Under the pieces are notes generated by a model that did no database searches, was not told the origin of the DNA, and was given only the letters and a program-made list of their open reading frames with translations. The position numbers and the translations under genes are program-made. Shown piece by piece: positions 9,167-39,580 of a stretch of DNA of 46,761 nt (position 1 is the first letter of the stretch; each line of letters starts with the position of its first letter). The stretch comes from Planctomycetota bacterium. GTDB taxonomy: Bacteria; Planctomycetota; GCA-002687715; DRQF01. The DNA lies in assembly GCA_027001995.1 (NCBI GenBank), contig JALTLO010000123.1, forward strand, positions 1 to 46,761. Direction: 5' to 3'.

Positions 9167-9210
9167 ACGACTAATCCTTGGACTGGACTCAATACTGATA
9201 AATCCTGGAG

Positions 9211-14499: not shown

Positions 14500-14969
14500 G
14501 GGATTGCCACCTCCACGACGTCCACACCACTCCTGGCATCGATCCTTTTACCGATTGCCGAACCCTGAAGAACAAAGTTAACGCCATTTTCTTCCACCAA
14601 GACGCTCTTAACGTAGTCAACCTGAATTGTGCCCCCAACGGATGGAGGTGGAAGAAGGTCCGCATCTTCAAACTTTGAGAGACCTTCAATGTGGTCAACC
14701 AGAAGAGCCACGACGGGATCCAAGTCCTCAAGGCGAACCAGCACGAAGCAGGTCTTCGGGGTAATGGGCGACGGATCACCCTGCCATAGCAAGACATGAA
14801 GATCGATTGCCGTGATTGTTTCCGACCGGAGATTGAGAACGCCCAAAACAGACGGATTAGGATGGTTAATTGGAGTTACGTCTGTGTAGGAAATCACTTC
14901 CTGAACCTGTTTCGATTCCAGTGCGAATCGGCGGCCGGCAACGTCGAAGATGAGCAACCTAACCATCAA
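14496..14969 (-). CDS. cheW: Chemotaxis coupling protein CheW
   Basis: [14 protein letters not shown]...VQEVI...[17 protein letters not shown]...ALLVDHI. Confidence 0.88.
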
Positions 14970-16501
14970 AAAAGCTCGTCAATTGGTACTTCATCATTGG
15001 GGCCGCATCCGGGTGAAGAGACCACTTGCCGTTGGGTCTTTGGGTTATTGCCCCTATGGGTGAAGCGACTTCCGGCCATACTGCCCTTACCCTCCAAGAT
15101 CCCTCGCAAGTCAACCACAACGCGCTCAAGCTCATCCGCTTGTTCGCCCAACATGTGAGCCGAAGCTGCGCTTTCCTCAGAAACCGCTGCATTTGATTGG
15201 ACCACGGCATCGATCTGGGCCAAAGCCGCGTTGATCTCACCAATCGCAGTGGACTGACTCTTGCTCATTTCGTTGATTGCTCCAATCTTGGAAGTCACCG
15301 TTGTGACGGAAGATGTGATCTTTTTGAGCATCGATGCGGTTGAACCACAATGAGAGCTACCATCCTTGGCCGAATTGAGGGCAATTCGAATGCTCTCCGC
15401 TGTCTCGCTTGCGGCTTTGCCACTGCGTTCGGCCAAGTTTCGAACCTCTTCTGCGACCACGGCGAAGCGACGACCATGCTCACCGGCTCCTTCAGCTTCA
15501 ATGGCCGCATTGAGCGCCAAGAGATTGGTCTGAAATGCGATATCCTCAATCGCCTTCAAGACGTTGGCCACGCTTGTGGTGCTCTCCTCGATTTCTTGCA
15601 TGGCCGCCTGCATGCTATTCATGGTCTGGTCACCATCGCTGACGATTTCTTGGGCGCCATTGGCGAGTTCTGCCACTTCGGCGGCGCATTCCGCGTTAGC
15701 CCGTGCGGACCCAGCAACATCATCAATCGTCGCCGTTGTCTCTACCAATGATGCGGCGTTACTCTGCACACCTTCCGCCACATCTTGAGACGCTTGGGCA
15801 ATCTCCTTCGATGCCGTGGCAATCGATTCCGACCCGGCGGCAAGCTTGTTGAGAGCTTCAGCCAAGGGTTTGGTAATTGATCGTCCAACGAAGAATCCAA
15901 GAATCCCAAGGCCAATAACCAAAGCCACTGCAATATTCTGAGCAGCATAAAGCGTCCCCAATTTGGCGTCCGAAGCCGATTGAAAAGCACCGGTGGCTGA
16001 ATTCATCAGTTTCAGCAAAGAGACATTGTTCTCGACCAAGAACTGAAGAGCCTCAGACCGAAGCTGCGGAGATTTTTGACTTTCGGGGCTGGTCAAAACA
16101 CCAATGCGTTTCTTGAATTCGACCCAAAGTTCTTTCCCCTTGGCGAGGGCGTCGATCACACCTTCATCTTCTGCTGGAGGCAAGGTACAAGTTTCCATCT
16201 TGCCGTTGAGAGTTTCACCTCCTTCAACAAGAGCCAGAAGAGTCCGATCGAATAGGGCTTCTGTTTTCATCAAAGCGTCACGCCATTGGGCATGCTTTTC
16301 TGGTGACTGGGCCCCGGCCAGAAGAACAGCCTCCTTGGTCATCCGCTGACTCAACATCCTCTGACGTCCGGTCAGATTGATTTGCAATCCATCGGCCTTC
16401 TTCTGATTCAACAAAGACGATGTCACGAGGACAAGAACAACAGGAAGGGCGACAAAAGTAATGACCAAGCTATTCAATTTAACATTGAGGCTGAGACGCA
16501 T
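14966..16501 (-). CDS. Methyl-accepting chemotaxis protein with NarX/PilJ-type periplasmic sensor (probable nitrate receptor)
   Basis: Two TMs flank a sensor starting [17 protein letters not shown]. Signalling tip reads [37 protein letters not shown]. The start may be 16501 or 16540. Confidence 0.92.
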
Positions 16502-16560
16502 AAGTCGGATCCAGATTAAGAGAACAAAGTAGACGCCCATGCGCCATTGCCTTCATCGCA

Positions 16561-22819: not shown

Positions 22820-22930
22820 GATTCATGACTCCCCACAAACACATCTATAGCCCATGGAGAGTGAAAGAGCATCCCGGTCTTCGTCACAATTCTTCTTGGA
22901 ATTCTCCGATCGGATACCGTATACGGAGAA

Positions 22931-22960
22931 GGGCGAAGATATGTTGCCATATCTTCGCCC
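22931..22960 (-). terminator. Hairpin ending the nar-act operon
   Basis: GGGCGAAGATATG-TTGC-CATATCTTCGCCC, a perfect 13-bp stem 24 bp after the actF stop, extendable by CGGAGA/TCTCCG; weak U-tract. Confidence 0.7.
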
Positions 22961-22984
22961 CAAAATCTCCGGTTTCGTCTATTC

Positions 22985-24067
22985 TCAGGTTGCTAAACTT
23001 AGCTTGGGTAGTTTCTTGGACATCATCCAGAAGAAAGCTGAGAGAACTGCCAACGGAGGACCGATCTCCCACAGACCTAAGGGAGGTAGATCTGGAAACG
23101 CTGTTGGCGTGATGATGATGTAAAGATCTAACCAACGACCCACCAAAAGAATCAAGGCCACCCGTCCCAAGATCGCGGGGTTCGCTTTCCACGGTGCTGG
23201 TAGAAGAATAAGGAAAGGAGCCACGAAGTTGAGGATCAAGCTTAAATAGCTCAATGTCGCCCAGCTCCCCGTCATGCGCGTGGCAAACCAAGATGTTTCT
23301 TCTGGCATGTCTGTGTACCAGATCAGCATATACTGGCAATACCAGATATAGCCCCAAAAGAAACTGAATGCGAACATCAACTTACCCAAGTCATGTGCCA
23401 AGTTTGGTGACAGCGGCTTCATTGCTCCTAAGTGGATACCACGCAATACAACTAAGGTTATGGCGGCAGCTCCAGATAGAAACAGTCCGGCAAAGCAGTA
23501 GACGCCGAACATGGTGCTAAACCATGTAGGCTCCAAAGACATGAGCCAATCGAATGAGAAAATGGAGAAGCTGAATCCGAATAGAACCATGAACACCCCG
23601 GCTCTGCCACGCCCACTCTTCTTGTGCATCCATTTAGCACCGAAAGCCCAAACGACGAAACAAAGAATTGATCTCAGAATGAATGAATTGAGATTGAGCC
23701 ACCCCAACTTATGCGCCATGTGTGAAGAAACATTCTCTGGCGTCATGTGGAACCAGTCATAGAGAGTCGAGGCACCAAAGACACAGAGAATAGCCAAACC
23801 AGCACTGAGAGGTAAGAGGCTCGTTGTCTTCTTAGCAATTGGAACAATCCGGTCAGCCCAGTTAGCTGCACACAAGCGCACGATGGCGATTAGAACGGGT
23901 CCGGACATAGCCAGACCAATGAGCATACAAACGGAAACCAACCAGGACGACCAAATTCGCTCTGGAGCGGCAAAAAGTCCAACAGCAAACACAAGGAAAC
24001 CTGTGGCCATGATGCCTTGGTAGCTCTTGCTCAGAGGTTCCGCAGTTGATTGATTCTTGGTGGTCAT
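22985..24067 (-). CDS. actF: Alternative complex III subunit ActF (NrfD-like membrane subunit)
   Basis: ~10 TM; FDWLMSLEPTWFSTMFG, HDLGKLMFAFSFFWGYIWYCQYMLIWY..PEE..WF..R; ATGA overlap with actE. Confidence 0.88.
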   Translation of the reverse strand: MTTKNQSTAEPLSKSYQGIMATGFLVFAVGLFAAPERIWSSWLVSVCMLIGLAMSGPVLIAIVRLCAANWADRIVPIAKKTTSLLPLSAGLAILCVFGASTLYDWFHMTPENVSSHMAHKLGWLNLNSFILRSILCFVVWAFGAKWMHKKSGRGRAGVFMVLFGFSFSIFSFDWLMSLEPTWFSTMFGVYCFAGLFLSGAAAITLVVLRGIHLGAMKPLSPNLAHDLGKLMFAFSFFWGYIWYCQYMLIWYTDMPEETSWFATRMTGSWATLSYLSLILNFVAPFLILLPAPWKANPAILGRVALILLVGRWLDLYIIITPTAFPDLPPLGLWEIGPPLAVLSAFFWMMSKKLPKLSLAT

Positions 24068-24636
24068 TTGAGAACCCCCTGTAGCTTTCTCACGTAGAGA
24101 ATTGTCTTCCATCGGTCGTCTCGCCCAATCTGGGCCCCATGACTTGGCATGTTGTTTCGGCCAAGGGTTATGGCGTGATAAATCTCGCCATCGGGCATTT
24201 TCTTGGCATTCTCTAACAGCAAAGAAGGGGGAGGCGGAACGCCCCTTTTGGTCACAGTCCCATCACCCTTGCCCCCTTCACCATGGCATACAGCGCAATA
24301 AATCTTGAAGTTGCGAGCACCTCTTTCCAGATTCGCTGGATCAGGCTTGAAGGGATTCACCAGTTCCTGACCAGCACGTTTCGCCTCTTCCAGGCCATCA
24401 CCATAGGGAAATGGCATGAATCCGCGAACGATCGTTCCAGGCACGGGAAGCCTAAGATTGCGCCCATCGTCAAAGACAGGGTTTGATTCCTGAGACTGAT
24501 AAGCTGCGGAGGTATTCATGTCCATCAAGAATTCTGGCGTGCGTACCGACAAATCTCGCTCACAACCGTGTTGGAGAAGAAGAAAGAGCAAACACCAAAA
24601 AATCATCAACGAAACTAAGAGGTTGCGAGCGGTCAT
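24064..24636 (-). CDS. actE: Alternative complex III subunit ActE (monoheme cytochrome c lipoprotein)
   Basis: Lipoprotein-like ..QHGCER, MDM..S.AY..QE..P.F.DG...R.PV.GTI.RG, a single CAVCH and NNMPSH; ATGA overlap with actD. Confidence 0.88.
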   Translation of the reverse strand: MTARNLLVSLMIFWCLLFLLLQHGCERDLSVRTPEFLMDMNTSAAYQSQESNPVFDDGRNLRLPVPGTIVRGFMPFPYGDGLEEAKRAGQELVNPFKPDPANLERGARNFKIYCAVCHGEGGKGDGTVTKRGVPPPPSLLLENAKKMPDGEIYHAITLGRNNMPSHGAQIGRDDRWKTILYVRKLQGVLK

Positions 24637-25181
24637 GATTTCACCTCCTCCATCTGGTCCCAAGAGCGAATGGCTCCATGACGATCCCAAAGGTCTGACA
24701 AGTCAGTTTGTGTCAAGCCTGCCCCTTTATCGCGAATCACGACCACAAATTCATCGTCCGTAACCGATGCCTCTGGGAGTCGCGGTTTCTTGCCGAAAAA
24801 GAGACGATTCGAGATGAAGAACGTGGCGACAACGCCCAAACTGGCAAACAGAACAGTGAGTTCGAAAGCCACGGGAACAAACGCCGGCCACGATTCGAAT
24901 GGCTTGCCACCGACGTTGAGTGGCCAATCGTCACGAGACGTGAAATATTGCAACCAACGAGCCAAAGCCAGCCCTGACAAACCAAAGAAGAAACAAGCCC
25001 AAGTCAGTTTCGACCGTTTCATACCCATAGCTTCTTCGATGCCATGAATAGGATAGGGGCCATGGACATCGACCACATCAAATCCGGCTTCGCGGCATTC
25101 TTTCGCCGCGGAACAAGCATCATGGTCATCGGTAAAAGCGCCAAAATGGAGCCACCTCAATTCTCTTTGTTTGAAAACCAT
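24633..25181 (-). CDS. actD: Alternative complex III subunit ActD (DUF3341)
   Basis: DVHGPYPIHGIEEAMG and DWPLNVGGKP..SWPAFVPVAFELTVLF. Confidence 0.9.
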   Translation of the reverse strand: MVFKQRELRWLHFGAFTDDHDACSAAKECREAGFDVVDVHGPYPIHGIEEAMGMKRSKLTWACFFFGLSGLALARWLQYFTSRDDWPLNVGGKPFESWPAFVPVAFELTVLFASLGVVATFFISNRLFFGKKPRLPEASVTDDEFVVVIRDKGAGLTQTDLSDLWDRHGAIRSWDQMEEVKS

Positions 25182-26542
25182 TAGGCGTGCCCTCCCTTCT
25201 TCTCTAAGACTCCCTTAACTTCTGACATCGCCAGGAATGGGAAGAAGCGACAGAACAAAAGAAACAAGGTGAAGAACAAACCGAAGCTGCCAACAAAGGT
25301 GGCCACCTCAATCGCCGTTGGACAATAGCTGGCCCAACTTGACGGTAAGAAGTCCCGATGGATGGACGTCACAATGATAACGAAACGCTCGAACCACATA
25401 CCGATGTTGACAAAAATGGTGACGATAAAGACCAGGAGCAAGTTCTTGCGCACTTTGCCAAACCAAAGCAACTGGGGGATGATCACGTTACAAGAAACCA
25501 TGATCCAGTAGGCCCATCCCATGGGTCCTCGAATGCGATTGAGGAAGGCAAACTGCTCATATTCGCTGCCAGAATACCAGGCGATAAATAGCTCTGTTGT
25601 ATAGGCGAATCCAACGACGCAGCTACCAAAGACAATGACGCGACAAGCGGCGTTAATGTGTCGCTGTGTTATGTAGTTCTCAAAGTTGAGGACTTTACGA
25701 GCGATGAGCATGAGTGTCATCACCATGGCAAAGCCTGAGAAAATGGCTCCAATCACAAAGTAGGGTGGAAAGACCGTCGTATGCCAACCCGGAATCACTG
25801 CTGTCGCGAAGTCGAAACTCACCACACTGTGCACAGAGACCACCAAAGGTGTCGCCAAACCGGCGAGCAAGAGATAGACAACTTCGTAGCGCATCCAAGA
25901 GCGCTGGGATCCACTCCAACCCATGGAGAAGAAACCGAATATTGCCTTCTTGATCTTGGATTTTGTCCGGTCACGCAAGGTGGCCAAGTCAGGTATGAGC
26001 CCGAAGTACCAGAAGACGGCTGAAACCGTGAAATAGGTACCAATGGCAAAGACGTCCCAAAGGAGAGGTGATCGAAAGTTCACCCAAAGGGGACCGCGAA
26101 AGTTGGGATAAGGAAAGACCCAATGGGCTAACCAAGGGCGGCCCATGTGAATGACCGGAAATAGACCGGCGCACATGACGGCAATGATAGTCATGGCCTC
26201 AGCTGCACGATTCATCGACGTCCGCCACTTCTGTCTCATCAAGAAGAGAATGGCAGAGATCAATGTTCCAGCATGGCCGATTCCAACCCAAAAAACGAAG
26301 TTGGTGATGTCAAAGGCCCAACCGACCGTCTTGTTAAGGCCCCAGGTGCCGATACCTGTGGCGATCTGATACCAGACGGCGGCAAACCCGACACCCAACA
26401 AACTGAGAGCAACAATAAACGCTACCCACCAGGACTTACTGGCGCCCCTTTCGATGGGAGCTGCCACGTCGGCGGTCACATCCTTTGGCGTTCTGTCTCC
26501 GAGAATAAGTGGAGGGATGTCCACACAAGCTTCATCAGCCAT
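25181..26542 (-). CDS. actC: Alternative complex III subunit ActC (NrfD/PsrC family quinol-binding subunit)
   Basis: WAFDITNFVFWVGIGHAGTLISAIL, HMGRPW, NFRSPLLWDVFAI and SVHSVVSFDFA. ATG26542 preferred (alternative 26566). Confidence 0.93.
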   Translation of the reverse strand: MADEACVDIPPLILGDRTPKDVTADVAAPIERGASKSWWVAFIVALSLLGVGFAAVWYQIATGIGTWGLNKTVGWAFDITNFVFWVGIGHAGTLISAILFLMRQKWRTSMNRAAEAMTIIAVMCAGLFPVIHMGRPWLAHWVFPYPNFRGPLWVNFRSPLLWDVFAIGTYFTVSAVFWYFGLIPDLATLRDRTKSKIKKAIFGFFSMGWSGSQRSWMRYEVVYLLLAGLATPLVVSVHSVVSFDFATAVIPGWHTTVFPPYFVIGAIFSGFAMVMTLMLIARKVLNFENYITQRHINAACRVIVFGSCVVGFAYTTELFIAWYSGSEYEQFAFLNRIRGPMGWAYWIMVSCNVIIPQLLWFGKVRKNLLLVFIVTIFVNIGMWFERFVIIVTSIHRDFLPSSWASYCPTAIEVATFVGSFGLFFTLFLLFCRFFPFLAMSEVKGVLEKKGGHA

Positions 26543-29500
26543 GTCGTCCTCCTTCCTCTTCGTCATGATTGCGCACGATTGTGCGATAGGCGACTGTTGG
26601 TTTCACGTTTAGTTCCTCTAACACTAGAAACTCCAAAGGATCAGCCATCGCTTCTGCGACTTGGCTCTTGTGGTCTTTGGTATTGCCAAAAACGATAGCG
26701 GTCGTTGGGCATGTCTGCATGCAAGCCGGTTCGATCTCTCCATCTGCCAGAGGGCGACCTTCTCGCTTGGCATCAGCCTTCGCAGACTGAATCCTCTGCA
26801 CGCAGAAACTGCACTTCTCCATCACCCCGCGGGAGCGAGTCACAACGTCTGGATTCAAGGCCATGTTCTGCAAACGATCTTCGTGGGAGTAGTCGAACCA
26901 ATTGAATCGCCGAACCTTGTAAGGACAGTTGTTGGCACAATAGCGAGTGCCGATGCAGCGATTATAAACCTGTTGGTTCAAGCCCTCTTCACTGTGGACC
27001 GTTGCCAGCACGGGGCATACAGTTTCGCAGGGTGCATTGTCACATTGCTGACACATCATCGGCTGATGAACCGTATCAATTTCTTCTGGCTCATGGATCG
27101 GGCCACTGAAGTAGCGATCGATCCGCAGCCAGTGCATTTCACGCCGACGCTCAACCTCATCTCGACCAACCACAGGAATGTTGTTCTCTACTTGGCAAGC
27201 CAAGACACAGGCAGAACATCCGGTACACTTGGTCAGATCAATGGCCATGCCCCAATGGGGTTTATCATTGGCATGATCATTGTCCCACAGATCAAGATCG
27301 CGACTGCTGTGATGCCCTCCCTTGTGATCTGAGGCATGTTTCCCCAAGGCCACCAAAGTCGTTTCCTTGACAATATCCCGATGCTCATGGCCTGGAGGCG
27401 CCGTCTTTTCTGGTAGATCCAGAGAACCATAGGTCTGGGCCAGAGCCAAACCTGGTTTCGCGCCTGTTTTCTTGATCGTGACAATGGCATGATTCTGCAC
27501 GCGGCCGTCAACGATGGGGTTCATAGGAGCAACGTTGACGCCAATCACGTCACCGGATTTCACTGTCAGGTCACCTTCGAGCCATTGTGGGCCTACCTTT
27601 GAAAACCGATCGGTTCCGGCACGGCCATAACCCATCGGGATGACCACAGCGTCTGCGTGCTGACCAGGCTGAATACGAACTGGTAGCTTGACCTTAAAGT
27701 CTTGGGCCATCACTTCGATTTCGTCGCCATCGCTCAGATTAAGCTGTTGGGCTGTACCTGGCGAAAGGGATGCGGCGTTGCCCCAACTCATCTTGGTGAT
27801 GGGATCGGGCAGTTCTTGCAACCATGCATTGTGGCCGAATCGCCCATCCCACATACCGGTGTCCCCATGAATGGAGACTTCTAGAGCATTGGGAAACTCA
27901 CTGGCTGTTTGGAAGACAAGCTTGTCGAAAGCGTTCTTCTGCCAAGGGCTGTGGGCCACTGATGGCATGTCAAGAGCCACTGCACCATCGTGCTGAGTTT
28001 GATCCCAGAAGGCAGTAAAACTCTTGGCTCCTGTCTTTTTCCATGGCAACGAATCTTTGAACAACTTCTTGCGGAAAGCACGATCGTCCGTTGTGTCACC
28101 CGTCCATGCTGCGAGAGAATCGCGAAAATGTCTGGTGTCAAACAAGGGGCGGATAGCGGGCTGGGTCAAAGAAAGGACACCATGAACTGAAACCGCATCA
28201 TCCCAGGATTCCAAGAAATGAGGCTGAGGGCAGATGTAGTGCGCTTTCGCCGTGGTCTCCGTGGGTGATCCGTCCACGCAGATAACACAATCAACTTTGT
28301 TAAGGCCATCAGCGAAGGCTTGAGCATCCGGGCGATCAAAGACAGGGTTCACCCCTTGAATGATGACGGCAGAAACTCTGCCAGCATTCATGTCCGCAAC
28401 CAGAGCTCCTACATCTTGATCCCGTCCTTTGCGTTGAAAGCTCGGGCTGGAGATGTCCAGTGTCTTACCGTAGTTACCCAGAAGATCATTGATGCGCGCC
28501 ACCAGCATCTGGGCTTCTAAGCGGTTGCTGCCAGAAACCAGAAGACTCTTACCCTTCGCCTCCCAAAGACGATCCGCAAGGAGCTTGACATCATCTGGAC
28601 GCTTGGACTTGCCAGAGTCCAAGCCAACGATTGCCTTGCCCGACCTCTTGCTAATCTCAAAGGCCAGATCCTTGAGAATCTCAAAGGCTTGAACATGGGT
28701 GGCCACCAAACGACGGTCGGCCTTTGACCCCGTGAGTGACATCCCCGACTCGACTTGGGCATGCCAAGACATATGAAGGTCTTTCGCCGAAGGATTCCGA
28801 CCCTTGGCATAGCCGTCCGAGAACTCCACCGGTGAAATCCAAGTCCCGAGGAAGTCTGCGTCGAAGCTGACAATAACTTGGGCCTTGTCAAAGGCGAAAC
28901 GAGGCAGAACGCGGCTGCCAAAGGCCAACTCATGAGCATCAAGGAGAGCGCTGGAAGACATGGCATCATATTGAATGTGCCGACGATTCGCTCCCTTCTC
29001 AAGAAAGGCGTCAATTCTCGCCTGGGTACTGGGGCTGGTAATAGTCGACGTCAAAACAACAACAGCACCTTGAGCGGCGTCGAGCTTCGCCTTCACTTCC
29101 GCGTCCAGGGCATTCCACGTCAATGTGTTGTTTCGGTTCTTCGGTGCAGGGAATCTCTTCGAGTCATAAAGTCCCAAAAGCCCCGCTTGCCCAGCGGCGC
29201 AAAGACCACCCCCGGATATCGGGTGGGCGCGGTCAATAGGTCCATTGCCACCGCGAAATCCTTCAAGCTTGATGGGGCGACCATCACGATTCTTCGCCAT
29301 GAGCCCGCAGCCAGCTGTGCAACTACCACAGGTAGAAGCATAGAAATATGCTTTCCCCGGAACGATCTCTTCAGGGGGAACCAAATAGGGTATCGCTTTC
29401 TTGACAGGTCCCGGGCTGCAGGCTGCCAAGAACGCTCCCATGGCACTAAATCCTGTGGCCTTGAGGAAAGTTCGCCTCCCCCAAGCCCCAGTCTCTCGTA

Positions 29501-29594
29501 CCGCCTCTTCTCCTACCTCTTTCGGTGCAGGGAGAGGAGGCGCAAGCTCAGCAGGAGACATCCAATACTTAGGTTTGTTCGATGATGAAGTCAT
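26535..29594 (-). CDS. actB: Alternative complex III subunit ActB (TAT-exported molybdopterin-oxidoreductase-like domain + Fe-S domain)
   Basis: YWMS..EL, GRRTFLK...LAAC Tat/lipoprotein leader and [9 protein letters not shown]. C-terminal [45 protein letters not shown] and [14 protein letters not shown]. Confidence 0.93.
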   Translation of the reverse strand: [1019 protein letters not shown]

Positions 29595-29608
29595 GGATCA
29601 TCAACTCC

Positions 29609-30262
29609 TCAATAGTGACAACCAACGCAATCAGTTGATGCATTGAGTGCGTGGTTGCCATGTAGGCCGTTTTCGTTCACATCTCGGTGACAATTCACAC
29701 AAGACCCCATAGACAAGTCACCAAACTGGCGCACGCGCTCCATCGTCTCCACCGGCCCGTGACACTTCTGACAATCGACGCCAGCGTTGATGTGCCGAGA
29801 ATGATCAAAGAAAACAAAGTCGGGTAAATCATGGACTTTCACCCATTCAATCCCCTTCGCTTTCTTGGTTGGATCGGGTTTCAAGTTGTCATCCAAGCCA
29901 AGGCCGTCATAGATCTTTTGAATCTCAGGTGACTGAACCAACTTGGGAGACCTTCCTTTCGACTTTGCCAAGGCCGCTTCGGCCCTGACATCAGCGAAAG
30001 GAGCCCGCACGGTCTTGTGACAGTTCATGCAAGTGCCCAGCGCAGGAATCCCGGCGTGACGACTTCTGTCTGCTCCAGAATGGCAATATTGACAGTCGAT
30101 CTTCATCTCACCAGCATGAAGCCGATGAGAAAAACTGATGGGCTGCTCCGGGGCGTAACCCTGGTCGTTGCCGGGTAAATTAACATCGGCTGATGCCCAA
30201 ATGGCGGCACCCCCGAAGATGCACATGAGAACAAATAGAATCCATGTAGTTTGATTGGTCAT
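29609..30262 (-). CDS. actA: Alternative complex III subunit ActA (pentaheme cytochrome c)
   Basis: N-terminal TM, GYAPEQPISFSHRLHAG, five CxxCH (CQYCH, CMNCH, CQKCH, CVNCH, CVGCH) and LPDFVFFDHSRH. Confidence 0.93.
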   Translation of the reverse strand: MTNQTTWILFVLMCIFGGAAIWASADVNLPGNDQGYAPEQPISFSHRLHAGEMKIDCQYCHSGADRSRHAGIPALGTCMNCHKTVRAPFADVRAEAALAKSKGRSPKLVQSPEIQKIYDGLGLDDNLKPDPTKKAKGIEWVKVHDLPDFVFFDHSRHINAGVDCQKCHGPVETMERVRQFGDLSMGSCVNCHRDVNENGLHGNHALNASTDCVGCHY

Positions 30263-30275
30263 GATTCAATTCCGA

Positions 30276-31940
30276 TCAACACTTAATCTCAGCATTCTTA
30301 CGGCCATAGAACCACCAGTTGACTGCCAAGCAGGTGGCGTAGTAACCGGCGAATCCATAAAGAGCATTCTCTGGAGTTCCGGCTTTGATCTGGGTTGCAA
30401 AAATCTTCGGAATCAAGAAGGCGCCGTAGGCGGCGATAGCCGACGTCCAACCGAGGACAGGACCAGCTTGCTCCTTCGAGAAAATGATAGGGATCATTCG
30501 GAACGTCGATCCATTGCCAATTCCCGTTGTTGCAAAGAGAACAACAAAGAGAATCAAGAAGGGCATGAAGTACTCTTCCGGTGTCGGGGAGTTGCTGGCT
30601 AAGGAAACATAGTAGCCCGCACCAATGGTCGAAGCGATCATAATGATCGTATCCCAATGGGTCACCCTCGCGCCACCGAACTTGTCCGCCAACCAACCAC
30701 CGATTGGACGAATCAAGGCACCGACGCCAGCGCCGATCCAAATATAGTTGGAAGCAATTGGTGCGTTCGGGTTGGCGATACTTTCAAGTAAAGGTAAGCC
30801 ATCAGCACCAACGCGAATGACCCCAAAGACATCGGGAATCAACTTGGGAAAGGCGTTGGCATATCCAATGAAAGAACCAAAGGTCATGGTGTAGAGCCAA
30901 GTCATGATCCAGTTGTGTTTGTTATCGAAGATCTTGAATTGATTTTCGAGGTTCTCACGCACTTCTGGTTTGGTGAATTTCTTCATCATGAACAGAGTCA
31001 GAAGGACTGCGATCAAGACGATGACGAAGATTTTCAATAGGACGGGGAATCCACCCCAAGGAATAATGAGGAGTCCAACTGCTGCACCTGCGCCAATGAA
31101 ACCAATCGCCATGAGCCAAAGATACTTGCCCACAGCAGACGCCGTCGAACCACACTTGTGTTGAGGCATATTGTGCATCATGAAGAACGCCATGATGCAA
31201 AGAGTTGCCAGGATGGGAATCCACACGAGGGCGGCATTCTGAATCCAAAGATCTTTATCACCAACACGATAAGGATCGCCACCGATGCTGCCAAATGCAC
31301 CAAAAGTGATAATCCAAGGCAAAAGGAACTGCATGGTACTCACACCCGCATTTCCGATACCAGCGTTGAGGCCAAGTGAAAGCCCTTGCATCTTCTTGGG
31401 AAAGAAGAAGCTAATGTTCGACATGGACGAGGAGAATGCGCCACCACCAACGCCAGACAAAGTTGCCAAAAGAACAAAAGTACCAAAGCTCGTATCTGGG
31501 TTCTGTAAGGCAAAACCAGCGCCGATAGCAGGGAGAAGAAGCATCAATGTCGTCATGAACTTGACGTTTCGGCCGCCGCAAACCGCTATCATGAAAGAGT
31601 TGGGAATGCGAAGTGTGGCACCCGCCAAACCAGCGGCAGCTGGCAGAGTATACATGAGTGCCCGATAGGCATCAGGCGAAAAGAACTCACCGTCATTCAT
31701 GAAAGTGAAGTTGAAGAGAGACAAGTCAGAGAAGTGAGCCTTCTGAATCATCTTCGCCACCATGCCCCAGTAGAGCCAGACGGCGAAACCACAGAGCAGG
31801 TTCGGGATGGAGACCCAGAGATTCTGATAGGCAATCTTCTTGCCTTTTGATTTCCAGAATCCCTCATCTTCAGGATCCCATTTCAAAAGTGTCCGACCAT
31901 CCGCAATTTTTTCGTTGCGATCGGGACCAGATCCGCTCAT
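30276..31940 (-). CDS. narK: NarK family nitrate/nitrite transporter (NarK2-like)
   Basis: WDPEDEGFW, NLWVSIPNLLCGFAVW, SSMSNISFFFPK..QG..LGLNAGIGNAG, TGIGNGSTFRMIP and WTSAIAAYGAF. AAGGAG RBS before ATG31940. Confidence 0.92.
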   Translation of the reverse strand: MSGSGPDRNEKIADGRTLLKWDPEDEGFWKSKGKKIAYQNLWVSIPNLLCGFAVWLYWGMVAKMIQKAHFSDLSLFNFTFMNDGEFFSPDAYRALMYTLPAAAGLAGATLRIPNSFMIAVCGGRNVKFMTTLMLLLPAIGAGFALQNPDTSFGTFVLLATLSGVGGGAFSSSMSNISFFFPKKMQGLSLGLNAGIGNAGVSTMQFLLPWIITFGAFGSIGGDPYRVGDKDLWIQNAALVWIPILATLCIMAFFMMHNMPQHKCGSTASAVGKYLWLMAIGFIGAGAAVGLLIIPWGGFPVLLKIFVIVLIAVLLTLFMMKKFTKPEVRENLENQFKIFDNKHNWIMTWLYTMTFGSFIGYANAFPKLIPDVFGVIRVGADGLPLLESIANPNAPIASNYIWIGAGVGALIRPIGGWLADKFGGARVTHWDTIIMIASTIGAGYYVSLASNSPTPEEYFMPFLILFVVLFATTGIGNGSTFRMIPIIFSKEQAGPVLGWTSAIAAYGAFLIPKIFATQIKAGTPENALYGFAGYYATCLAVNWWFYGRKNAEIKC

Positions 31941-32000
31941 GACTTTTCTCCTTGGTTTATCAGGGCCCAATGGAGGCCCCGTTGTTCGACTTGATAAGGT

Positions 32001-32711
32001 CTAATGTCCAATTCTCTTACGCCTTGGCCCGACCCAACGGACTACCTGTGTTCGCCTCCAGAAGTAAGGATTTGGAATAACCAAAATGTGAACCAATCTG
32101 GTGAAGGGGAATAAAGCGATGAGGGCAAAAGCAGACACCATGTGAAGTTTGACCATGGCTGGCAGAGCAACAATGAAGGACGTGTCCGGCGACAGCTTGA
32201 GCAAAGACCACAAGTAAGGTGCAGCGTTGGACGCATACCATGAGGAGCCCCAGCGCTCGAAGACGGCGATGTAGACACCTGACAGGAATTGAAGCAACAA
32301 GATTGCGTAGAGAATCCAATCGGCAGTTGTCGTCACCGTCATGATCTTCTTGCTTCTGAAACGGCGCACAATAACGTTGACAAAGCCTACGACGGTCAGA
32401 ATGCCGCAGACCAGAGCGCTAATCTCTAAGATGTAGAGGCGCAGGGGCTGGGAATTCCAAGCAATGACACTGCCGGGGATGAGGAAGCCCACTACATGAC
32501 CAACGATGATGGCCAGAACACCATAGTGAAAAGGGACCATGCCCCAAAAATGATGTTTGTTCTCTAAGAACTGAGACGAAAGACTGGAATAGGTAAACGT
32601 CTGAGTGCGATATCTTTGGATTGTCATCAGCAAGAAGACAACGAACGAAAGATAGGGAAGGACAACAAACATGAGATTGTTGAAGTCACCCAGGAACTCG
32701 TCGCTAAACAT
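32001..32711 (-). CDS. narI: Respiratory nitrate reductase gamma subunit (cytochrome b)
   Basis: SSLSSQFLE and four heme-ligand His: FHYG, VGHVVG, KLHM, FPFTRLVH. Confidence 0.93.
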   Translation of the reverse strand: MFSDEFLGDFNNLMFVVLPYLSFVVFLLMTIQRYRTQTFTYSSLSSQFLENKHHFWGMVPFHYGVLAIIVGHVVGFLIPGSVIAWNSQPLRLYILEISALVCGILTVVGFVNVIVRRFRSKKIMTVTTTADWILYAILLLQFLSGVYIAVFERWGSSWYASNAAPYLWSLLKLSPDTSFIVALPAMVKLHMVSAFALIALFPFTRLVHILVIPNPYFWRRTQVVRWVGPRRKRIGH

Positions 32712-33246
32712 GGCATTCCTCCGCGGTTATCTGACTCGCAATCTCAATAACCACGGCATTCGCGGCCTTCATGAGATGCAGGTAAGGACTTTTTGACTGA
32801 GAGAAACCGGAGATCATCTTGGTGATTCCTGGCTCAAGAAACCCGATGGCCAAATCGCGCATGCGCTTGGGATCAACCCGGGCAAAGAGCCGAATCATCT
32901 GAGGCAAATGGTCAGGAAGCTCGGTGGTTGCTTCGATCCCTTGCTCGTTGAGGGCGGCCTTCATCTTCACCAAGAACGCCCCGCGGTCGTAAGACTCCCC
33001 ATAGATTTGCCAACCGATCTCTAAGCTGCACTGTGGATTGATGTCGAAAGTTCGGGTATAGAGTTCTTCCTGCTGCGTGGCAGAAAGCGGAGCCATGCCT
33101 GCGCGAAAGGCCTCGAAACTCTCCCGCGCTTGAAGGGGCGCTCCAGCGAAAAGTGTGCACAGCTGCTCGACTTGCGGCCGCACATCCCCCCGGGGATACT
33201 CAAGCATAGAGGCCAAGGCGTAGAGTGATTCTCTGATGTTCGACAT
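32704..33246 (-). CDS. narJ: Nitrate reductase molybdenum cofactor assembly chaperone
   Basis: LEYP, EELYTRTFD, GESYDRG and ELPDHLP. Confidence 0.92.
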   Translation of the reverse strand: MSNIRESLYALASMLEYPRGDVRPQVEQLCTLFAGAPLQARESFEAFRAGMAPLSATQQEELYTRTFDINPQCSLEIGWQIYGESYDRGAFLVKMKAALNEQGIEATTELPDHLPQMIRLFARVDPKRMRDLAIGFLEPGITKMISGFSQSKSPYLHLMKAANAVVIEIASQITAEECHV

Positions 33247-33248
33247 GA

Positions 33249-34742
33249 TTAGAGCCCCCGCTTAGGACCGGTCCGGAATCCGAAACCAGCCTCTTGTTTG
33301 TGCTCATGGGGCTCTTTCAACATCTCAAGAGCTTCTTCGCGGTGCATAGGTGGAATAACGAAGCGATCGTCGAAGGTACAGAGTGCGGTCATCTTGTAGA
33401 TGGCATCGGCTTCGTCCTTGCTGCAGCCACTTTCAGCCAACATCTGTTCGGCCACCTTCATCTCGATATCACCGACAGTGATAGCCCGTCTGTACATGCG
33501 AATGGCCATCTGTTTGCGCAAACCTGTTCGCAAGAAACTCTGGTCGCCAGCCCCGAAGATGCTGGCCAAGAATTCCATAGGAACTCGGGCTTCATCAATA
33601 CTGTGGAATAGTTTCTCAGAGGTATTCTGAGTCAGACCATCCGTATGGGTTGACATGACAGGCAGAAGTGGCGGCACATAGAAGAGCATCGGCAAGGTGC
33701 GGTACTCGATGTGTGGCGGCAAAGCGATGCCCCATTCTTTGACGAATTTGTAGACTGGCGACTTTTGTGCGCTTTCAATGACAGAATCGTGTACGCCGGA
33801 CTTCCGAGCAGCAGCGATCACCTCCGGGTCATGGGGGTTGAGGATCATGTCACGCTGCCCTTGAATCAATTGATCCTGAGGCAAATTGGCAACTTCTTCC
33901 AATTTGTCTGCGTCGTAAAGCAAGACTCCCAGGTAGCGAATGCGACCAACACAAGAATGGAAGCAAGCAGGAGCTTGGCCAGTTTCCAAACGGGGGAAGC
34001 AGAGAATGCACTTCTCCGACTTGCCTGTGTGCCAGTTATAGTAGGTCTTCTTGTAAGGGCAGGCGGAGATGCAGGCACGCCAAGCACGGCAGCGGTTCTG
34101 GTCCACCAAGACAATACCGTCCTCACCTCGTTTGTAGAGAGCACCTGATGGGCAGGAAGCAACGCAAGACGGATTCAAACAGTGATTACAGATTCGTGGG
34201 AAGTAAAACATCACCATGCGTTCGATGGCGAATAGTTGCTCCCGTTGCTCCGGCGTCAAGGACTCCAGGTTAGGATCGTTTTCTGCATAGACAGGCGAAC
34301 CAGAAAGGTCGTCATCCCAGTTCGGACCAGCTTTGATGTCCATGTAGTCGCCGGTAATCATGGAGATTGGGCGAGCGGTGGGCTGATCATCTCCCTCAGG
34401 AGCATTGAACAACTCGTCATACTTGTAAGTCCAAGGCTCATAGTAGTCGTCGATACTTGGCTGAGACGGGTTGTGGAACATGTTAAAGAGAGTCCTCTTC
34501 TTGTCCATAGCCCGAAGCTTGAGTTTACCGTTCTCGTCTTTCAACCAGCCGCCGCGGTATGTTTCCTGGTCTTCCCAACGTGTCGGAAATCCAGTTCCTG
34601 GCTTCGTCTCTACGTTGTTCCACCACATGTACTCTGACCCCTTGCGGTCAGTCCAAATGTTCTTGCAAGCGATGCTACAAGTGTGGCAGCCAATACATTT
34701 GTCGAGGTGAAACACCATCGATATTTGTGATCTAACGTCCAT
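33249..34742 (-). CDS. narH: Respiratory nitrate reductase beta subunit
   Basis: LDKCIGCHTCSIACKNIWT, PRICNHCLNPSCVASCPSGA, CRAWRACISACPYKK and EKCILCFPR. Confidence 0.97.
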   Translation of the reverse strand: MDVRSQISMVFHLDKCIGCHTCSIACKNIWTDRKGSEYMWWNNVETKPGTGFPTRWEDQETYRGGWLKDENGKLKLRAMDKKRTLFNMFHNPSQPSIDDYYEPWTYKYDELFNAPEGDDQPTARPISMITGDYMDIKAGPNWDDDLSGSPVYAENDPNLESLTPEQREQLFAIERMVMFYFPRICNHCLNPSCVASCPSGALYKRGEDGIVLVDQNRCRAWRACISACPYKKTYYNWHTGKSEKCILCFPRLETGQAPACFHSCVGRIRYLGVLLYDADKLEEVANLPQDQLIQGQRDMILNPHDPEVIAAARKSGVHDSVIESAQKSPVYKFVKEWGIALPPHIEYRTLPMLFYVPPLLPVMSTHTDGLTQNTSEKLFHSIDEARVPMEFLASIFGAGDQSFLRTGLRKQMAIRMYRRAITVGDIEMKVAEQMLAESGCSKDEADAIYKMTALCTFDDRFVIPPMHREEALEMLKEPHEHKQEAGFGFRTGPKRGL

Positions 34743-34759
34743 GGGATGTGTCCTCTCGT

Positions 34760-37700
34760 CTACCAGACCAGTTGTGGGAGTTTGCGTACAAAAATGTGGG
34801 TATCACGGTTACATCCCGTCGGTCCCCAGTAGTTGAAGTGGTAGGTGAACTGTCCGTACCCGCCGATCATCAGGTTTGGCTTGAGCCTTGTCCGCACCAA
34901 ACTGTTGTGACCGCCTGCACGCTTGTAACCACGAATTGGCGATTTCGGGATTCCCAAGGTGCGCTCAGGCGAGTGATAGATGATGCAAACACCACGAGGA
35001 ATGCGGCAAGAGACAACAGCGCGTGTCACAACCACACCATGGTCATTGTGAACTTCGACCCAGTCGTTGTCTGCGATGTCCAAAGTTTCAGCATCTTTTT
35101 CATTGATCCAGAATGGCTCGCAACCCCGAGACAAAGTCGTCATGCGAGCGTTATCACCATAGGTCGAATGAATGTGCCACTTGCCATGAGGAGTGAGGTA
35201 GTTCAGCATCAAAGTCTGACCTTCATCCTTACTCACTTTGAGGTCGCCATATTGCTCAGGGGTTGGCCTTGGTTTGTACGTCGGCACATTCTCACCAAAC
35301 TGAATGTAGGTGTCATGATCGAGATACAAGTGCTGGCGGCCTGTGAGAGTTCGGAATGGGACCAGTCGTTCAACGTTATAGGTGAACGGCGCGTAGGCGC
35401 GCCCATTGTCCAGGAGGCCAGACCACATGGGACTGTTGATTAGTCTTTGAGGTTGAGCTTCCAAGTTTGCAAAATTAACCCGCCGATCACGATTGTTGGC
35501 AGCTAAATCGGCCAAAGTGAGGCCGACCTTCTCTTCCATATTCTTGTAGGAACGATAGGCCAGTTCACCGTTGGTCACAGTGGCAAAGCGCAGGACGATC
35601 TCCGCCGCCTCTTTTGCTTGCGTGAGACTAGGGTAGGTTTCTCCACCCCACTTGACAACGGGAGAGTCGACTTTGACTTCTTCATAGACGTCGTCCACGG
35701 CATAGTGGGTGCCATGGGCTCCCAGCCCATTCTTGGGCACGTTTGGTCCGTAGGAAATAAACTGGTTGTAGAGGTTGGTGTAGTCGCGGGAAACCACGGC
35801 CACATTCGGCATGGTCTTCCCAGGAATTGCCTTATCCTTGCCATTGACCCAATCTGGGATGTGCTCTTGAGCAATCTCTGCTGGGGTGTCGTGGGGCAAA
35901 GGAGTCACAACCACGTCACGAACCGGATTGGGATAGTGCTTCGCGGATAGTTCAGAGAACTTCTTGGCGATGGAACGGAAGATGTCCCAATCGCTCTTAG
36001 CTTCCCAGCAAGGAGGAACGGCTTCATTCAGCGGGTGAATAAAACTGTGCATGTCGGTGGAGTTGAGATCTGTCTTCTCATACCACGTGGCCGCCGGCAG
36101 GACGATGTCAGAATAGAGAGCGGATGTATCCATTCTGAAGTTGAGGTCGACGACTAAGTCCATCTTGCCTTCTGGAGCCACATCCCGCCATTGCACTTCG
36201 GAGACAGCGTCTTTCGCCACGTCTTCCGCAATGGCATTGTTGTGGGTACCCAAGTAATGCTTCAAGAAGTACTCATGCCCCTTGGCCGAGGACATCAGGG
36301 CGTTGCCACGCCAGATAAAGAACACCCGAGGCCAATTCTCTGGTGCATCCGGGTCTTCCACGGCGAATTTGAGATCGCGAGACTTCATGCCATCCACGAC
36401 CCACTGACGCACCTCAGCATCCGTCTTGGCGCCGGCAGCCTCAGCTTCCTTCACCAATTCAAAGGAGTTCTTGTTGAATTGAGGATAGAAGGGCAGCCAA
36501 CCATTCTGAACGGCTCGAACTTGAGCGTCCATGGTGTGCTCCACGGGCATCTCCCCTTCGCGCACATCGGCGGCGACTACTTGGTACTCGCGATAACTCT
36601 TTTCATAGCGCCATTGATCACTGTGGACATAGTGCCAACTCGGGGCATTCTGCAGACGGGACGGACCATACCAGTCCTTCGCCAAAGCCACAGAGGCCCA
36701 TGATTCCATGGGAGCGAGTTTTTCCTGGCCCACATAGTGAGCCAAGCCGCCGCCATTCTTGCCGACACAACCACAAAAGACCAAAGCATGGATCGCAGCC
36801 CGATACATGAGATTAGCGTGGTACCAGTGATTGATACCGGCCCCAATGATGACGGTGCACTTGCCGCCGGTGTGCTTGGCTGTTGTGCCCCACTCTCTGG
36901 CAAACTTGATGAGATCTCGGCGATCAATCCCGGTATAGATCTCCGACCATGCAGGCGTATAAGGCATGCTGTCATCGTCGTAATCTTTGGGGTAAGCACC
37001 CTCAAGACCACGGGGAACACCATACTGAGCCATCATCACATCGTAGACCGTAGCCACTTTGACCTTGCCGTCGATGGTTTTGATTTCGCGGATGGGGACA
37101 TGCCGAGCGAGTTCACTTCCACCGCCAAAATCATCGAAGTAGAGGCCAATAGTCCCGTCGTTCTTGTTCAAGAATGTCAGCTCTGGGTTGAGAGCGCCAC
37201 CGTCGACAGCGTCTTCCAGCTTCAGGTTCCATTTGCCCTTTTCTTCTCCCCAACGGCTTCCGATCGTACCCAGAGGAACCCTGGGCCGGGACTCATTCTC
37301 GTCCCAAATCAAGAACTTCCAATTGCTGTTTTCTTGATCGCCGAATCGTTCAAGCCGATTGGCGCGCAGCATCTTGCCAGCCCGCATCTTGCCGCCATCC
37401 TCGACGATTTCAACCAAGAAAGGAGAATCGGAATACTGCTTGACGTACTGGAGGAAGTCTGGGGTCTGTTGTTCGTGATGAAATTCCTTCAACAGCACAT
37501 GATTCACTGCCATCCACCAAGCGCCGTCTTGTCCAGCGTTGATCGAGATCCAGTCGTCAGCGAATTTTGCCACTTGACTGAAGTCAGGGGAGAACACCAC
37601 CATCTTGGAGCCATTATGCCGCGCTTCTGCAACAAAGTGACAATCCGGTGTCCGTGTCATGTTCAAGTTGGCGCCCATGACGGCCAACATTTTAGCGTTG

Positions 37701-38419
37701 TACCAGTCAGCCGACTCATTAACGTCGGTCTGCTCGCCCCAAGTCTCCGGGGAAGCGTTCGGCAAGTCGCAATACCAATCGTAGAACGACAATGAGATAC
37801 CGCCCATAAGCTGCATCATTCGGCTGCCAGCAGCGTAGCTGAGCATACTCATGGCAGGAATGGGTGAGAATCCAGCAATCCGGTCTGGACCATGCTCCTT
37901 AGCTGTATGGATATTGGCGGAGGCCACAATCTCCAATGCCGTATCCCAGTCTGCACGCCTGAAGCCGCCCTTGCCTCGAGCTCTTTGCCAGCGTTTACGG
38001 GCCTCTTCATTATCTACCAGAGATTTCCAAGCAGCGACGGGATCGTCATGCTCAGAACGAGCCTTCTTCCAAAGATCAAGGAGTGCACCGCGGATGTAAG
38101 GGTACTTCACCCGCAAAGGGCTGTAGAGATACCAGGAATAGGAGATACCTCTTTGGCAACCCCTTGGCTCGTACGGTGGAATTTCGCCTTCGAGCTCAGG
38201 ATAATCAAGAGCCTGCATTTCCCAGGTTACGATGCCTTCTTTGACATGAATTTGCCAAGAGCAACTACCTGTGCAGTTCACACCATGGGTCGAGCGCACA
38301 ACTTTGTCGTACTGATGACGGTTGCGATAGAACTCTTCCCAGGAACGCTGTGTCGGATCGTAGATGTCCTTGATCCATGAGTTGTCGTGTTCGCTTGAAC
38401 CAGATCCATGCTTGATCAT
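34760..38419 (-). CDS. narG: Respiratory nitrate reductase (or NXR-like) alpha subunit, cytoplasm-facing
   Basis: 1219 aa; [15 protein letters not shown]...PRGCQRG (FS0), FYDWYCDLP (Mo-ligand Asp), HYVGQEK and [13 protein letters not shown]; no twin-arginine leader. Confidence 0.97.
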
Positions 38420-39258
38420 TTTTGACCCCTAACCAATTTGCCGCGAACGCCAGTGAAGCGTCGCCGCCAAACAAAATCACAGAGCAGCAACGCTGCGACC
38501 GCACCCACGACACCAAAAATCAGAAATTCAATGCCCGGCCCTGGGGCCTCGCCTTCTTTCTTCGCTGCCTCTTTCATGTAGGCCAACAAAGGAAGAATCT
38601 CATCTGTGTGTATGGGTGATACTTTGAAGACAGGCGCCATCGTTTCTGTAGCTGGAGAGCTCAACCATGCCCCCAAGACCTTGCGCCCGTTGAGACGGGC
38701 ATAGGCGTCCGTCAAATCAGGACCAAGAAGGCCGCCACCGAGACCACTTTGGCCAGCAATGGTATGACAGGAAGCACATGCAGGAGCGCCACTTTGCATG
38801 CGAGTTGCGCCGCTGAAGAGAGCCTCACCCAACTCAACATCTTCAGCAGTGAAGGGGCGATCAGAGAGACTGAGGCCAGCGAACTTCGATCGCTCCAGCT
38901 TCGATTCGGCCTTGATGAGATCAAGAAGTCTCCGGGCCCGGTCCTTTGTCATTCCCGCCACCTTGGGCATAGGAACGTTACGAGCCTCTGCCAACAATTT
39001 CTTGGCGTAAGCGTCGCCGCTGGCAATCACTGCCCCAGGATCGACAATGAAATTGATGAGCCAATCTCTGTCCTTTCGATCTTCGACGTTCTTTAAGTCC
39101 GGCCCAGTCAGAGGGCCACCACCGATCGTGTGACAGCTCGCGCAGTTCGCTTGGAAGTATTCAGATGTTTCCTGAGCGCTGAGTGATCCGACCAAGAGCA
39201 ACAATGCTCCCAGCACCGCCAACCCACTTCGACCAGCTTTCGTAAATGAGAGCTCCAT
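38416..39258 (-). CDS. Periplasmic diheme cytochrome c with C-terminal membrane anchor (NarC-like)
   Basis: Signal peptide, two CASCH motifs each followed by GPDL, and a C-terminal TM. GAGGA RBS before ATG39258; ATGA overlap with narG. Confidence 0.88.
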
Positions 39259-39295
39259 GGCATTCCTCGTTTCGTGAATGAGACGACGGAAATAC

Positions 39296-39312
39296 CGCAC
39301 GGTTTATGCCAA
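39296..39312 (-). promoter_or_regulatory. Candidate sigma54 (-24/-12) promoter of the cytc-nar-act operon
   Basis: Minus strand TTGGCATAAACCGTGCG has GG-N10-GC spacing and lies 37 bp upstream of the start codon. Confidence 0.6.
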
Positions 39313-39337
39313 CCAGAACTGCTCACCCGTGGATTGT

Positions 39338-39468
39338 TAAACTACAAGTGGATAAAGACTTACGGCACTTGGATTGGGGGAGTCACAGAGGGAAATAGGG
39401 TTGACTGCATGCCTCAGAAGGCAACAAACCAACACGCAAACTCTAAACCTTTTGCTATCAAAGACTTA
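39338..39468 (+). promoter_or_regulatory. Two copies of TAAAC-N11-AAAGACTTA (39338-39362, 39444-39468); IHF-like sites
   Basis: Identical arms and spacing. 39456-39468 (TATCAAAGACTTA) is an exact match to the IHF consensus WATCAANNNNTTR. Confidence 0.55.
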
Positions 39469-39580
39469 AGGGTGCATTCTTCGTCATGCACCCAGGTGTC
39501 ATCAGGATGCAGTGGAGACGGCGGCGCCTTAGCCCCATCTCGCTGACGCCCAACAAGAACACCGCCAGCACTCGCAGCCA

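Follow-up and report, generated by a model that had tools for sequence, protein, structure and literature searches.

The stretch analysed here (the window) is one whole contig of 46,761 nucleotides (JALTLO010000123.1) from a Planctomycetota bacterium, whose genome of 5.2 Mb is 92% complete. Twelve genes on its minus strand, in the order narC-narGHJI-narK-actABCDEF, join a membrane nitrate reductase (Nar) to alternative complex III (ACIII). This nar-ACIII operon is real, widespread and made of known parts. Its sequence shows a cytoplasm-facing NarGHI, a dihaem NarC on the periplasmic side, a nitrate/nitrite transporter and an intact ACIII, which have been inherited together, and the locus is best explained as a single operon for nitrate respiration with a complex III of its own. 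In the textbook view, membrane nitrate reductase draws its electrons straight from quinol. For this operon we propose, giving the scheme an even chance of being correct, that electrons would pass from menaquinol through ACIII to NarC, then to NarI and NarHG, and so to nitrate.

According to this scheme, ACIII would oxidise menaquinol at ActC, and the electrons would then move via ActB and the haems of ActA and ActE to the first haem of NarC, which would stand in for the mobile domain that carries the sixth haem in Flavobacterium ActA. The second NarC haem would hand them to NarI, and across the membrane to NarH and NarG. Such a route would parallel the pairing of ACIII with oxidases, with nitrate reductase as the terminal enzyme. 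We infer both the direction of electron flow and a physical contact between NarC and ACIII. The initial annotation had already suggested that ACIII may be wired to Nar through the cytochrome c; synteny, co-inheritance, the status of this ACIII as an extra complex III, the homology between NarC and ActA domains and a bc-type module found in the same slot all support that suggestion, if indirectly, whereas the state of NarI, discussed below, leaves direct oxidation of quinol possible.

Conservation of the nar-act arrangement

The adjacency of nar and act genes is not unique to the window genome. We surveyed from narG, a choice made to avoid the selection in our ActA-based set of loci, and covered Planctomycetota, Acidobacteriota and Bacteroidota. 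The three phyla were represented by sets of 151, 401 and 401 genomes, of which 13, 25 and 55 matched. This gave 83 new loci, 12 too short to score and 71 assessable; matches on short contigs in G940 and G945 were left out. The act genes directly follow nar in 51 of the 71 (Planctomycetota 34/38, Acidobacteriota 10/12 and Bacteroidota 7/21), and nar and actA are separated by roughly 50 nt or less in 47 of 56 loci. Twelve of 41 relatives have narG, and in the loci fetched from them the order is the same wherever contigs are long enough, except in G026. Among the 80 loci kept, the closest ActA matches are nar-linked, in records of Planctomycetota, Bacteroidota, Ignavibacteria, Acidobacteriota, Zixibacteria, Calditrichota, Gemmatimonadota, Latescibacterota and Chlorobiota, and the closest relatives of the window ActA are Planctomycetota records.

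In an ActC tree that has 66 rows and omits four long-branch rows and three duplicates, all 24 nar-linked rows fall on one branch with SH-aLRT support of 100, together with 6 contig-cut and 5 non-nar rows. The idea that the nar-linked copies form a clean clade was rejected because the supported branch includes the five non-nar copies. In a comparison of ActC and NarH trees over 54 rows, which largely agree, 26 of 31 supported ActC splits recur in the NarH tree; the figure for NarH against NarI, 21 of 27, is similar. Two planctomycete ACIII clusters within the nar-linked branch (L044:8984-20531 and L046:9410-19109) have an ActA with six haems and an ActE of about 800 aa with seven, and neither nar nor coxI was matched in the DNA fetched around them; the cluster in L046 lies after a NapA-like molybdenum enzyme.

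Identity of the act genes

By sequence comparison, all six act genes encode genuine ACIII subunits, and ActA is free of the NrfA haem motif. The initial annotation had called the set complete, and indeed ActA to ActF are all present in order, with five haems in ActA and one in ActE. The top Protein Data Bank (PDB) matches of ActA, ActB, ActC and ActF are solved ACIII subunits, and ActE was assigned by its single haem motif, a Pfam cytochrome c match and its position. The ACIIIs of Flavobacterium johnsoniae (6BTM), Rhodothermus marinus (6F0K), Roseiflexus (6LOD) and Chloroflexus (8K9E) share with the window all six subunits, the five-haem ActA, an ActB that is a lipoprotein with a twin-arginine translocation (Tat) signal, and the quinol-pocket and channel residues. 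All 21 of the checked R. marinus quinol-pocket (His139, Asp169 and Asp253) and half-channel residues, as named in the accessible part of PMC5928083, are present in ActC; among 54 relatives, 19 are invariant and two occur in 53. The window ACIII differs from the solved complexes in that no oxidase genes adjoin it and in that its ActB retains the four FS0 cysteines. ActB otherwise follows the solved cofactor-less ActBs over its full length, and it has a conserved Ser213.

The FS0 cysteines, missing from the solved ActBs, are retained in 46 of 51 act-adjacent loci. They are one of the points in favour of a donor-side role resembling that of QrcABCD of sulfate reducers, in which ACIII would take periplasmic electrons through the iron-sulfur wire of ActB (with FS0) or through its haems and reduce menaquinone, and NarI would re-oxidise the menaquinol in a redox loop. 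Like ACIII, Qrc has a multihaem cytochrome, a molybdoenzyme-like subunit (cofactor-less in Qrc and in the solved ActBs), an iron-sulfur subunit and an NrfD-type membrane subunit; it is, in the excerpts available, electrogenic in the menaquinone-reducing direction, and an input function of the ActB wire has been hypothesised for R. marinus (PMC8552683, in part). We nevertheless consider this reading improbable. Qrc, which does reduce menaquinone, lacks ActD, ActE and ActF, and the channel residues of QrcD differ from those of ActC, which carries the full R. marinus set; moreover, the operon holds no donor enzyme. Nor is FS0 specific, since oxidase-linked ActB copies (L067, L222 and L223) carry the motif too, and it was rejected as a signature of nar-linked ACIII on this ground and on account of its loss from five nar-linked copies. 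Those five related planctomycete operons (L179, L183, L189, L190 and L198), in which all four cysteines are gone from ActB, are natural controls for what this site does.

The initial annotation saw in the operon its best candidate for an undescribed respiratory module, but the arrangement is in print, under another interpretation and with no experiment. In the portion available, Suarez et al. (2023; PMC10732223) report Nar genes that lie upstream of a cluster of six genes in 13 cases from metagenome-assembled genomes (MAGs) of Planctomycetota and KSB1, in the same order as here: a pentahaem cytochrome, a molybdoenzyme-like/4Fe-4S protein, NrfD, actD, a monohaem cytochrome and a quinone-binding subunit 2. 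The cluster was said to match no described complex, and an NrfAH-like nitrite reductase or respiratory protein was proposed. The section that describes it makes no mention of NarC, and its six genes are those identified here as ACIII subunits. Neither a second account of this layout nor any experimental work on it was found in a literature search mostly without subscription papers; the operon is not described in the accessible parts of PMC6995999, PMC9270275, PMC3903129, PMC3971608, PMC10609526, PMC5317091, PMC9386147, PMC6303296, PMC13608581 or PMC8076601.

The published hypothesis belongs to a reading in which the act cluster would reduce the nitrite that Nar produces and so be a terminal enzyme, either NrfAH-like or through an ActB that still binds molybdenum cofactor. 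CxxCK, the motif of the lysine-ligated active-site haem of NrfA, occurs in 0 of 56 ActA spans, and the PDB matches of ActA are all ActA. True NrfA is additionally present in 8 of the 32 carrier genomes. In favour of such a reductase are the failure to find NirS or NirK in those carriers, the presence of FS0 in ActB and the conservation of Ser213 at the position of the molybdenum-ligand Cys of a PhsA-like enzyme. However, the same Ser is present in F. johnsoniae ActB, which has no molybdenum cofactor (PMC8552683, in part), and we rate this reading as still less probable than a Qrc-like role.

NarC as the candidate link

NarC carries a signal peptide, two CxxCH motifs with invariant Met residues and a C-terminal membrane helix, and is 28% identical to Thermus NarC (E 8e-17). 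As in the Thermus-type NarCGHI, the gene for this membrane-anchored dihaem cytochrome c lies directly before narG, and the narCGHJIK(T) cluster of Thermus thermophilus, which encodes a heterotetrameric nitrate reductase, has the same gene order, a dihaem membrane-anchored NarC and the same NarI type. In enzymes of the Thermus type, NarC binds NarI and is required for maturation. The fetched Thermus region has no act genes, unlike the window operon, and the N-terminal domain of its NarC is of another type.

The first haem domain of the window NarC matches instead the monohaem domain at the N-terminus of F. johnsoniae ActA (E 5.9e-7), while the best resemblance of the second half of NarC is to actinobacterial QcrC. 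The domain fused to ActA in Flavobacterium thus has a homologue on NarC in the window operon; in F. johnsoniae, this sixth-haem domain is a proposed mobile shuttle from ACIII to the oxidase (PMC8552683, in part). A profile of the NarC N-domain scored ActA-fused monohaem domains at 88, 67, 55 and 33 bits, compared with 19 bits or less for other cytochromes of the window genome and 9-21 bits for Thermus-like NarCs. This ACIII-type domain is present in 50 of 50 act-adjacent loci with upstream DNA. In 17 of 17 tested genomes that have it without visible adjacent act genes, actD is found elsewhere, and four of four Bacteroidota that lack it have no actD. In the NarH tree the NarCs with this domain all lie on one side of one branch, with act adjacency lost about three times. 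A complex prediction of NarC with ActA and ActE (score 0.00) spoke neither for nor against a contact.

One locus (L143:8771-18397, G093:C5) holds narC-narGHJ, a 439-aa NarI-Rieske fusion, a cytochrome b, a monohaem protein and narK. By its gene content, it is a different, bc-type complex III module in the act slot of a NarC-type nar operon, and its genome also holds a nar-ACIII operon (L152). The haloarchaeal pNar, a Rieske/cytochrome b-linked nitrate reductase, is another case of a complex III-type module encoded with Nar; that enzyme faces the periplasm and uses a Q-cycle, whereas the window Nar faces the cytoplasm and keeps NarI. Two further loci (L226 and L227, in G906 and G835) have an ACIII with FS0 that follows a dihaem cytochrome weakly similar to NarC, and in L227 also a gene weakly similar to narI; the stretches fetched contain no narG.

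Other complex III copies and electron acceptors

The initial annotation proposed to look for a second, oxidase-linked act cluster; the window genome has a single act cluster. Its aa3-type oxidase is clustered with a Rieske/cytochrome b complex (L107:9641-15503, G000:C141), where a Rieske protein, a split cytochrome b and an eight-haem cytochrome of 1076 aa adjoin the oxidase genes. Of the 32 carriers, most of which are incomplete MAGs, 20 have two or three actD copies, 11 have one and one has none (a cut contig); all 11 with a single copy have a Rieske-type cytochrome b. Another complex III, whether a second ACIII or a Rieske/cytochrome b complex, is therefore present in 31 of 32, and the nar-linked ACIII is an extra complex III. 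An MqnC-like gene just below its family cut-off suggests that the window genome uses menaquinone.

In Thermus strains NarC is considered to feed NirS and nitric oxide reductase (Nor). Among the 32 carriers, NirS was found in none by a search that does find Thermus NirS, and NirK in none, which leaves a Thermus-type role of NarC here without its usual acceptor; NosZ is present in five. These counts weaken the earlier suggestion that ACIII feeds periplasmic denitrification enzymes. The window genome itself has a cbb3-like oxidase, two qNOR genes and a cNOR-like pair (L109:7483-9873, L111:5972-8359 and L112:5999-8196), with neither NirS nor NirK found. It also has a cluster (L113:2108-10362, G000:C19) that encodes a tetrahaem cytochrome, an NrfC/NrfD-like pair, an octahaem HAO-like protein, a NapA-like protein and another tetrahaem cytochrome; on its gene content, this is a second nitrate-reducing system and perhaps a nitrite-reducing one too.

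Operation in the reverse direction, also raised earlier, is weakened as well for the case of a nitrifier. Here Nar would be a Nitrobacter-type nitrite oxidoreductase and ACIII would run backwards and reduce quinone. Nitrobacter oxidises nitrite with a comparable cytochrome c-Nar cluster (PMC7694296, in part), and sequence cannot assign direction. However, neither RuBisCO nor acetyl-CoA synthase was found in five of five genomes (incomplete, with positive controls found), nor ATP-citrate lyase in the same number by a search without a positive control; NirK was found in none of the 32 carriers, and the operon is spread over many presumably heterotrophic lineages. We hold this to be the least probable of the readings considered.

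Points against the proposed route

The main rival is co-regulation without direct wiring. In this explanation Nar would oxidise menaquinol as in E. coli, ACIII would be a low-oxygen complex III for periplasmic carriers (cbb3, cNOR, Nap/octahaem or Nos), and NarC would either help in assembly or form an outgoing branch, as in Thermus. The Qrc-like, terminal-reductase and nitrite-oxidation readings are all less likely than this one, which we regard as unlikely, though to be taken seriously. Several observations favour it and weigh against the route through ACIII.

The first concerns NarI. Lys86 of E. coli NarI is a quinol-site residue; at this position the window NarI has Arg91, with a conserved Glu96, the same pattern as in Thermus NarI. 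All 56 act-linked loci examined keep the haem ligands and have the Arg, just like Thermus NarI, so that the quinol site is not visibly lost and NarI itself may oxidise quinol directly. The proposition that NarI has lost this site found no support, with haem His and basic residue retained. Furthermore, the haems of E. coli NarI are of low potential, and entry from a cytochrome c would therefore need shifted potentials. In Thermus, moreover, NarC is believed to carry electrons away from Nar (PMC7694296, in the part available).

Acceptors for an independent ACIII can also be named. The cNOR-like pair and the Nap/octahaem cluster of the window genome could take electrons, a cbb3-like oxidase subunit is present in 19 of 32 carriers at a loose threshold (4 above cut-off), and transfer from ACIII to periplasmic multihaem acceptors has, in the source as far as available, already been proposed for Caldithrix. 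On the other hand, no one acceptor is common to the carriers: 9 of 32 of these largely incomplete genomes show none of nirS, nirK, nosZ, nrfA and ccoN (cNOR, Nap and octahaem enzymes were outside the carrier survey). Co-regulation also leaves the ACIII-type domain of NarC and the NarI-Rieske fusion unexplained.

The comparative evidence has limits of the same direction. Agreement between the ActC and NarH trees could come from host descent alone. Thirteen loci have the same NarC type without adjacent act genes. Because all NarCs with the ACIII-type domain share one side of one branch, the association of that domain with ACIII amounts to one event, and the counts given above are not independent, the NarC type having arisen once; similarly, the four actD-less Bacteroidota genomes are one clade, and the N-domain profile was built from ACIII-linked NarCs.

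Energetics and significance

The redox potential of menaquinol is about -75 mV and that of nitrate about +430 mV. On these potentials, the span would allow two NarI charges and two pumped protons if NarC lies at about +100 to +250 mV. If ACIII pumps protons, more charge would be moved per nitrate than by the plain Nar loop; without pumping there would be no gain. The extra energy-conserving step proposed in the initial annotation hence depends on proton pumping by ACIII, which has been proposed but, according to the accessible part of PMC13059093, is not experimentally confirmed, and this too counts against the scheme. A stronger form of the scheme is a widespread complex III-nitrate reductase supercomplex, in which ACIII would pump while feeding NarC, the first domain of NarC would be the ActA sixth-haem docking module with another terminal enzyme, and NarC-type Nar would have recruited bc-type and ACIII-type complexes independently. 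We advance this tentatively, as possible but doubtful; were it true, more energy would be conserved per nitrate than by the textbook Nar loop.

Most assessable planctomycete and acidobacterial narG loci sampled carry their own ACIII, and common environmental nitrate respiration may therefore be wired differently, with a different growth yield. The ACIII identity corrects the published nitrite-reductase guess, which matters for the annotation of nitrogen-cycle genes in metagenomes. Finally, the operon offers a non-oxidase partner with which to test proton pumping by ACIII and the purpose of the ActB iron-sulfur wire.

Organisation of the locus

The twelve genes are spread over open reading frames (ORFs) from 39300 to 22985 in the window ORF listing, and their ORF-finder intergenic gaps are -4, 17, 2, -8, 30, 13, 14, -32, -1, -58 and -49 nt. 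The likelier ATG starts of narK, actC, actE and actF (Table 1) change four of these to 60, -8, -4 and -4, so that the statement of overlaps or gaps of about 60 bp or less in the initial annotation holds, with a maximum of 60 nt; several starts overlap the preceding stop. NarG, NarH, NarJ and NarI all exceed their family cut-offs, NarG aligned full-length with E. coli NarG and has no Tat signal, consistent with a cytoplasm-facing enzyme, and the four NarI His are kept, all features of a respiratory NarGHI. NarK falls below its NCBIfam cut-off (TIGR00886, 255 bits against 312) and belongs to the major facilitator superfamily by Pfam.

The closing hairpin noted earlier is a strong fold, matched by 0 of 200 shuffles, with a weak U tail, although a terminator scan made no call there. 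The candidate promoter was not confirmed: the promoter scan found no sigma-70-like site upstream of narC, and across 22500-39700 it found eight such sites, below a chance expectation of 11.0. Two sites of this kind, at chance level, fall within narK ahead of actA, and the act genes may therefore have an internal promoter. FNR-like boxes are not enriched in the DNA ahead of narC, with 5 in 55 regions compared with 4.0 in shuffled sequence, and there is no Rfam match in the window. The GC content is flat across the block at 50-54%, and nothing therefore marks it as foreign. As first noted, and in contrast to oxidase-linked ACIII, no haem-copper oxidase genes adjoin the act cluster: none was found among the 30 window ORFs scanned, and the oxidases of the genome lie elsewhere.

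Table 1. Features of the nar-ACIII operon in the window, in the direction of transcription
Feature	Position	Strand	Remarks
Intergenic region upstream of narC	39301..39580	-	No promoter identified
narC-type dihaem cytochrome c	38416..39258	-	Likely ATG 39258; ORF finder GTG 39300
narG, catalytic molybdenum subunit	34760..38419	-	TIGR01580 1485 bits, above cut-off
narH, iron-sulfur subunit	33249..34742	-	TIGR01660 above cut-off
narJ, chaperone	32704..33246	-	TIGR00684 above cut-off
narI, dihaem cytochrome b, Thermus type	32001..32711	-	Family cut-off passed; His62, 72, 190 and 208 kept
narK-family nitrate/nitrite transporter	30276..31940	-	ATG 31940; ORF finder TTG 31970
actA, pentahaem cytochrome c	29609..30262	-	Five CxxCH, no CxxCK, no fused sixth-haem domain
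actB, Tat lipoprotein, molybdoenzyme-like and iron-sulfur domains	26535..29594	-	Pfam and PDB matches
FS0-type four-Cys motif in ActB (C89, C92, C96, C132)	29199..29330	-	Missing from four solved ActB sequences
actC, quinol-site subunit	25181..26542	-	PF03916; ATG 26542, ORF finder 26566
actD	24633..25181	-	PF11821 E 4.6e-51
actE, monohaem cytochrome c, N-terminal anchor	24064..24636	-	ATG 24636; ORF finder TTG 24690
actF, membrane subunit	22985..24067	-	ATG 24067, ORF finder 24112; top PDB match 6f0k_F, E 7.9e-37
GC-rich hairpin 3' of actF, probable transcript end	22925..22971	-	-33.8 kcal/mol, z -7.57

Other genes in the window

About 6 kb from the operon, and adjoining cheW genes, lies a gene for a chemoreceptor with a PilJ-type sensor domain (14966-16540, minus strand). 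It has an INxxGxxRM stretch that resembles the nitrate-binding box of NarX and McpN, making it a candidate nitrate chemoreceptor; its sensor part has no PDB match. An RND efflux pair and a CLC channel that carries CBS domains (4746-11043, minus strand) are ordinary and unrelated to the operon.

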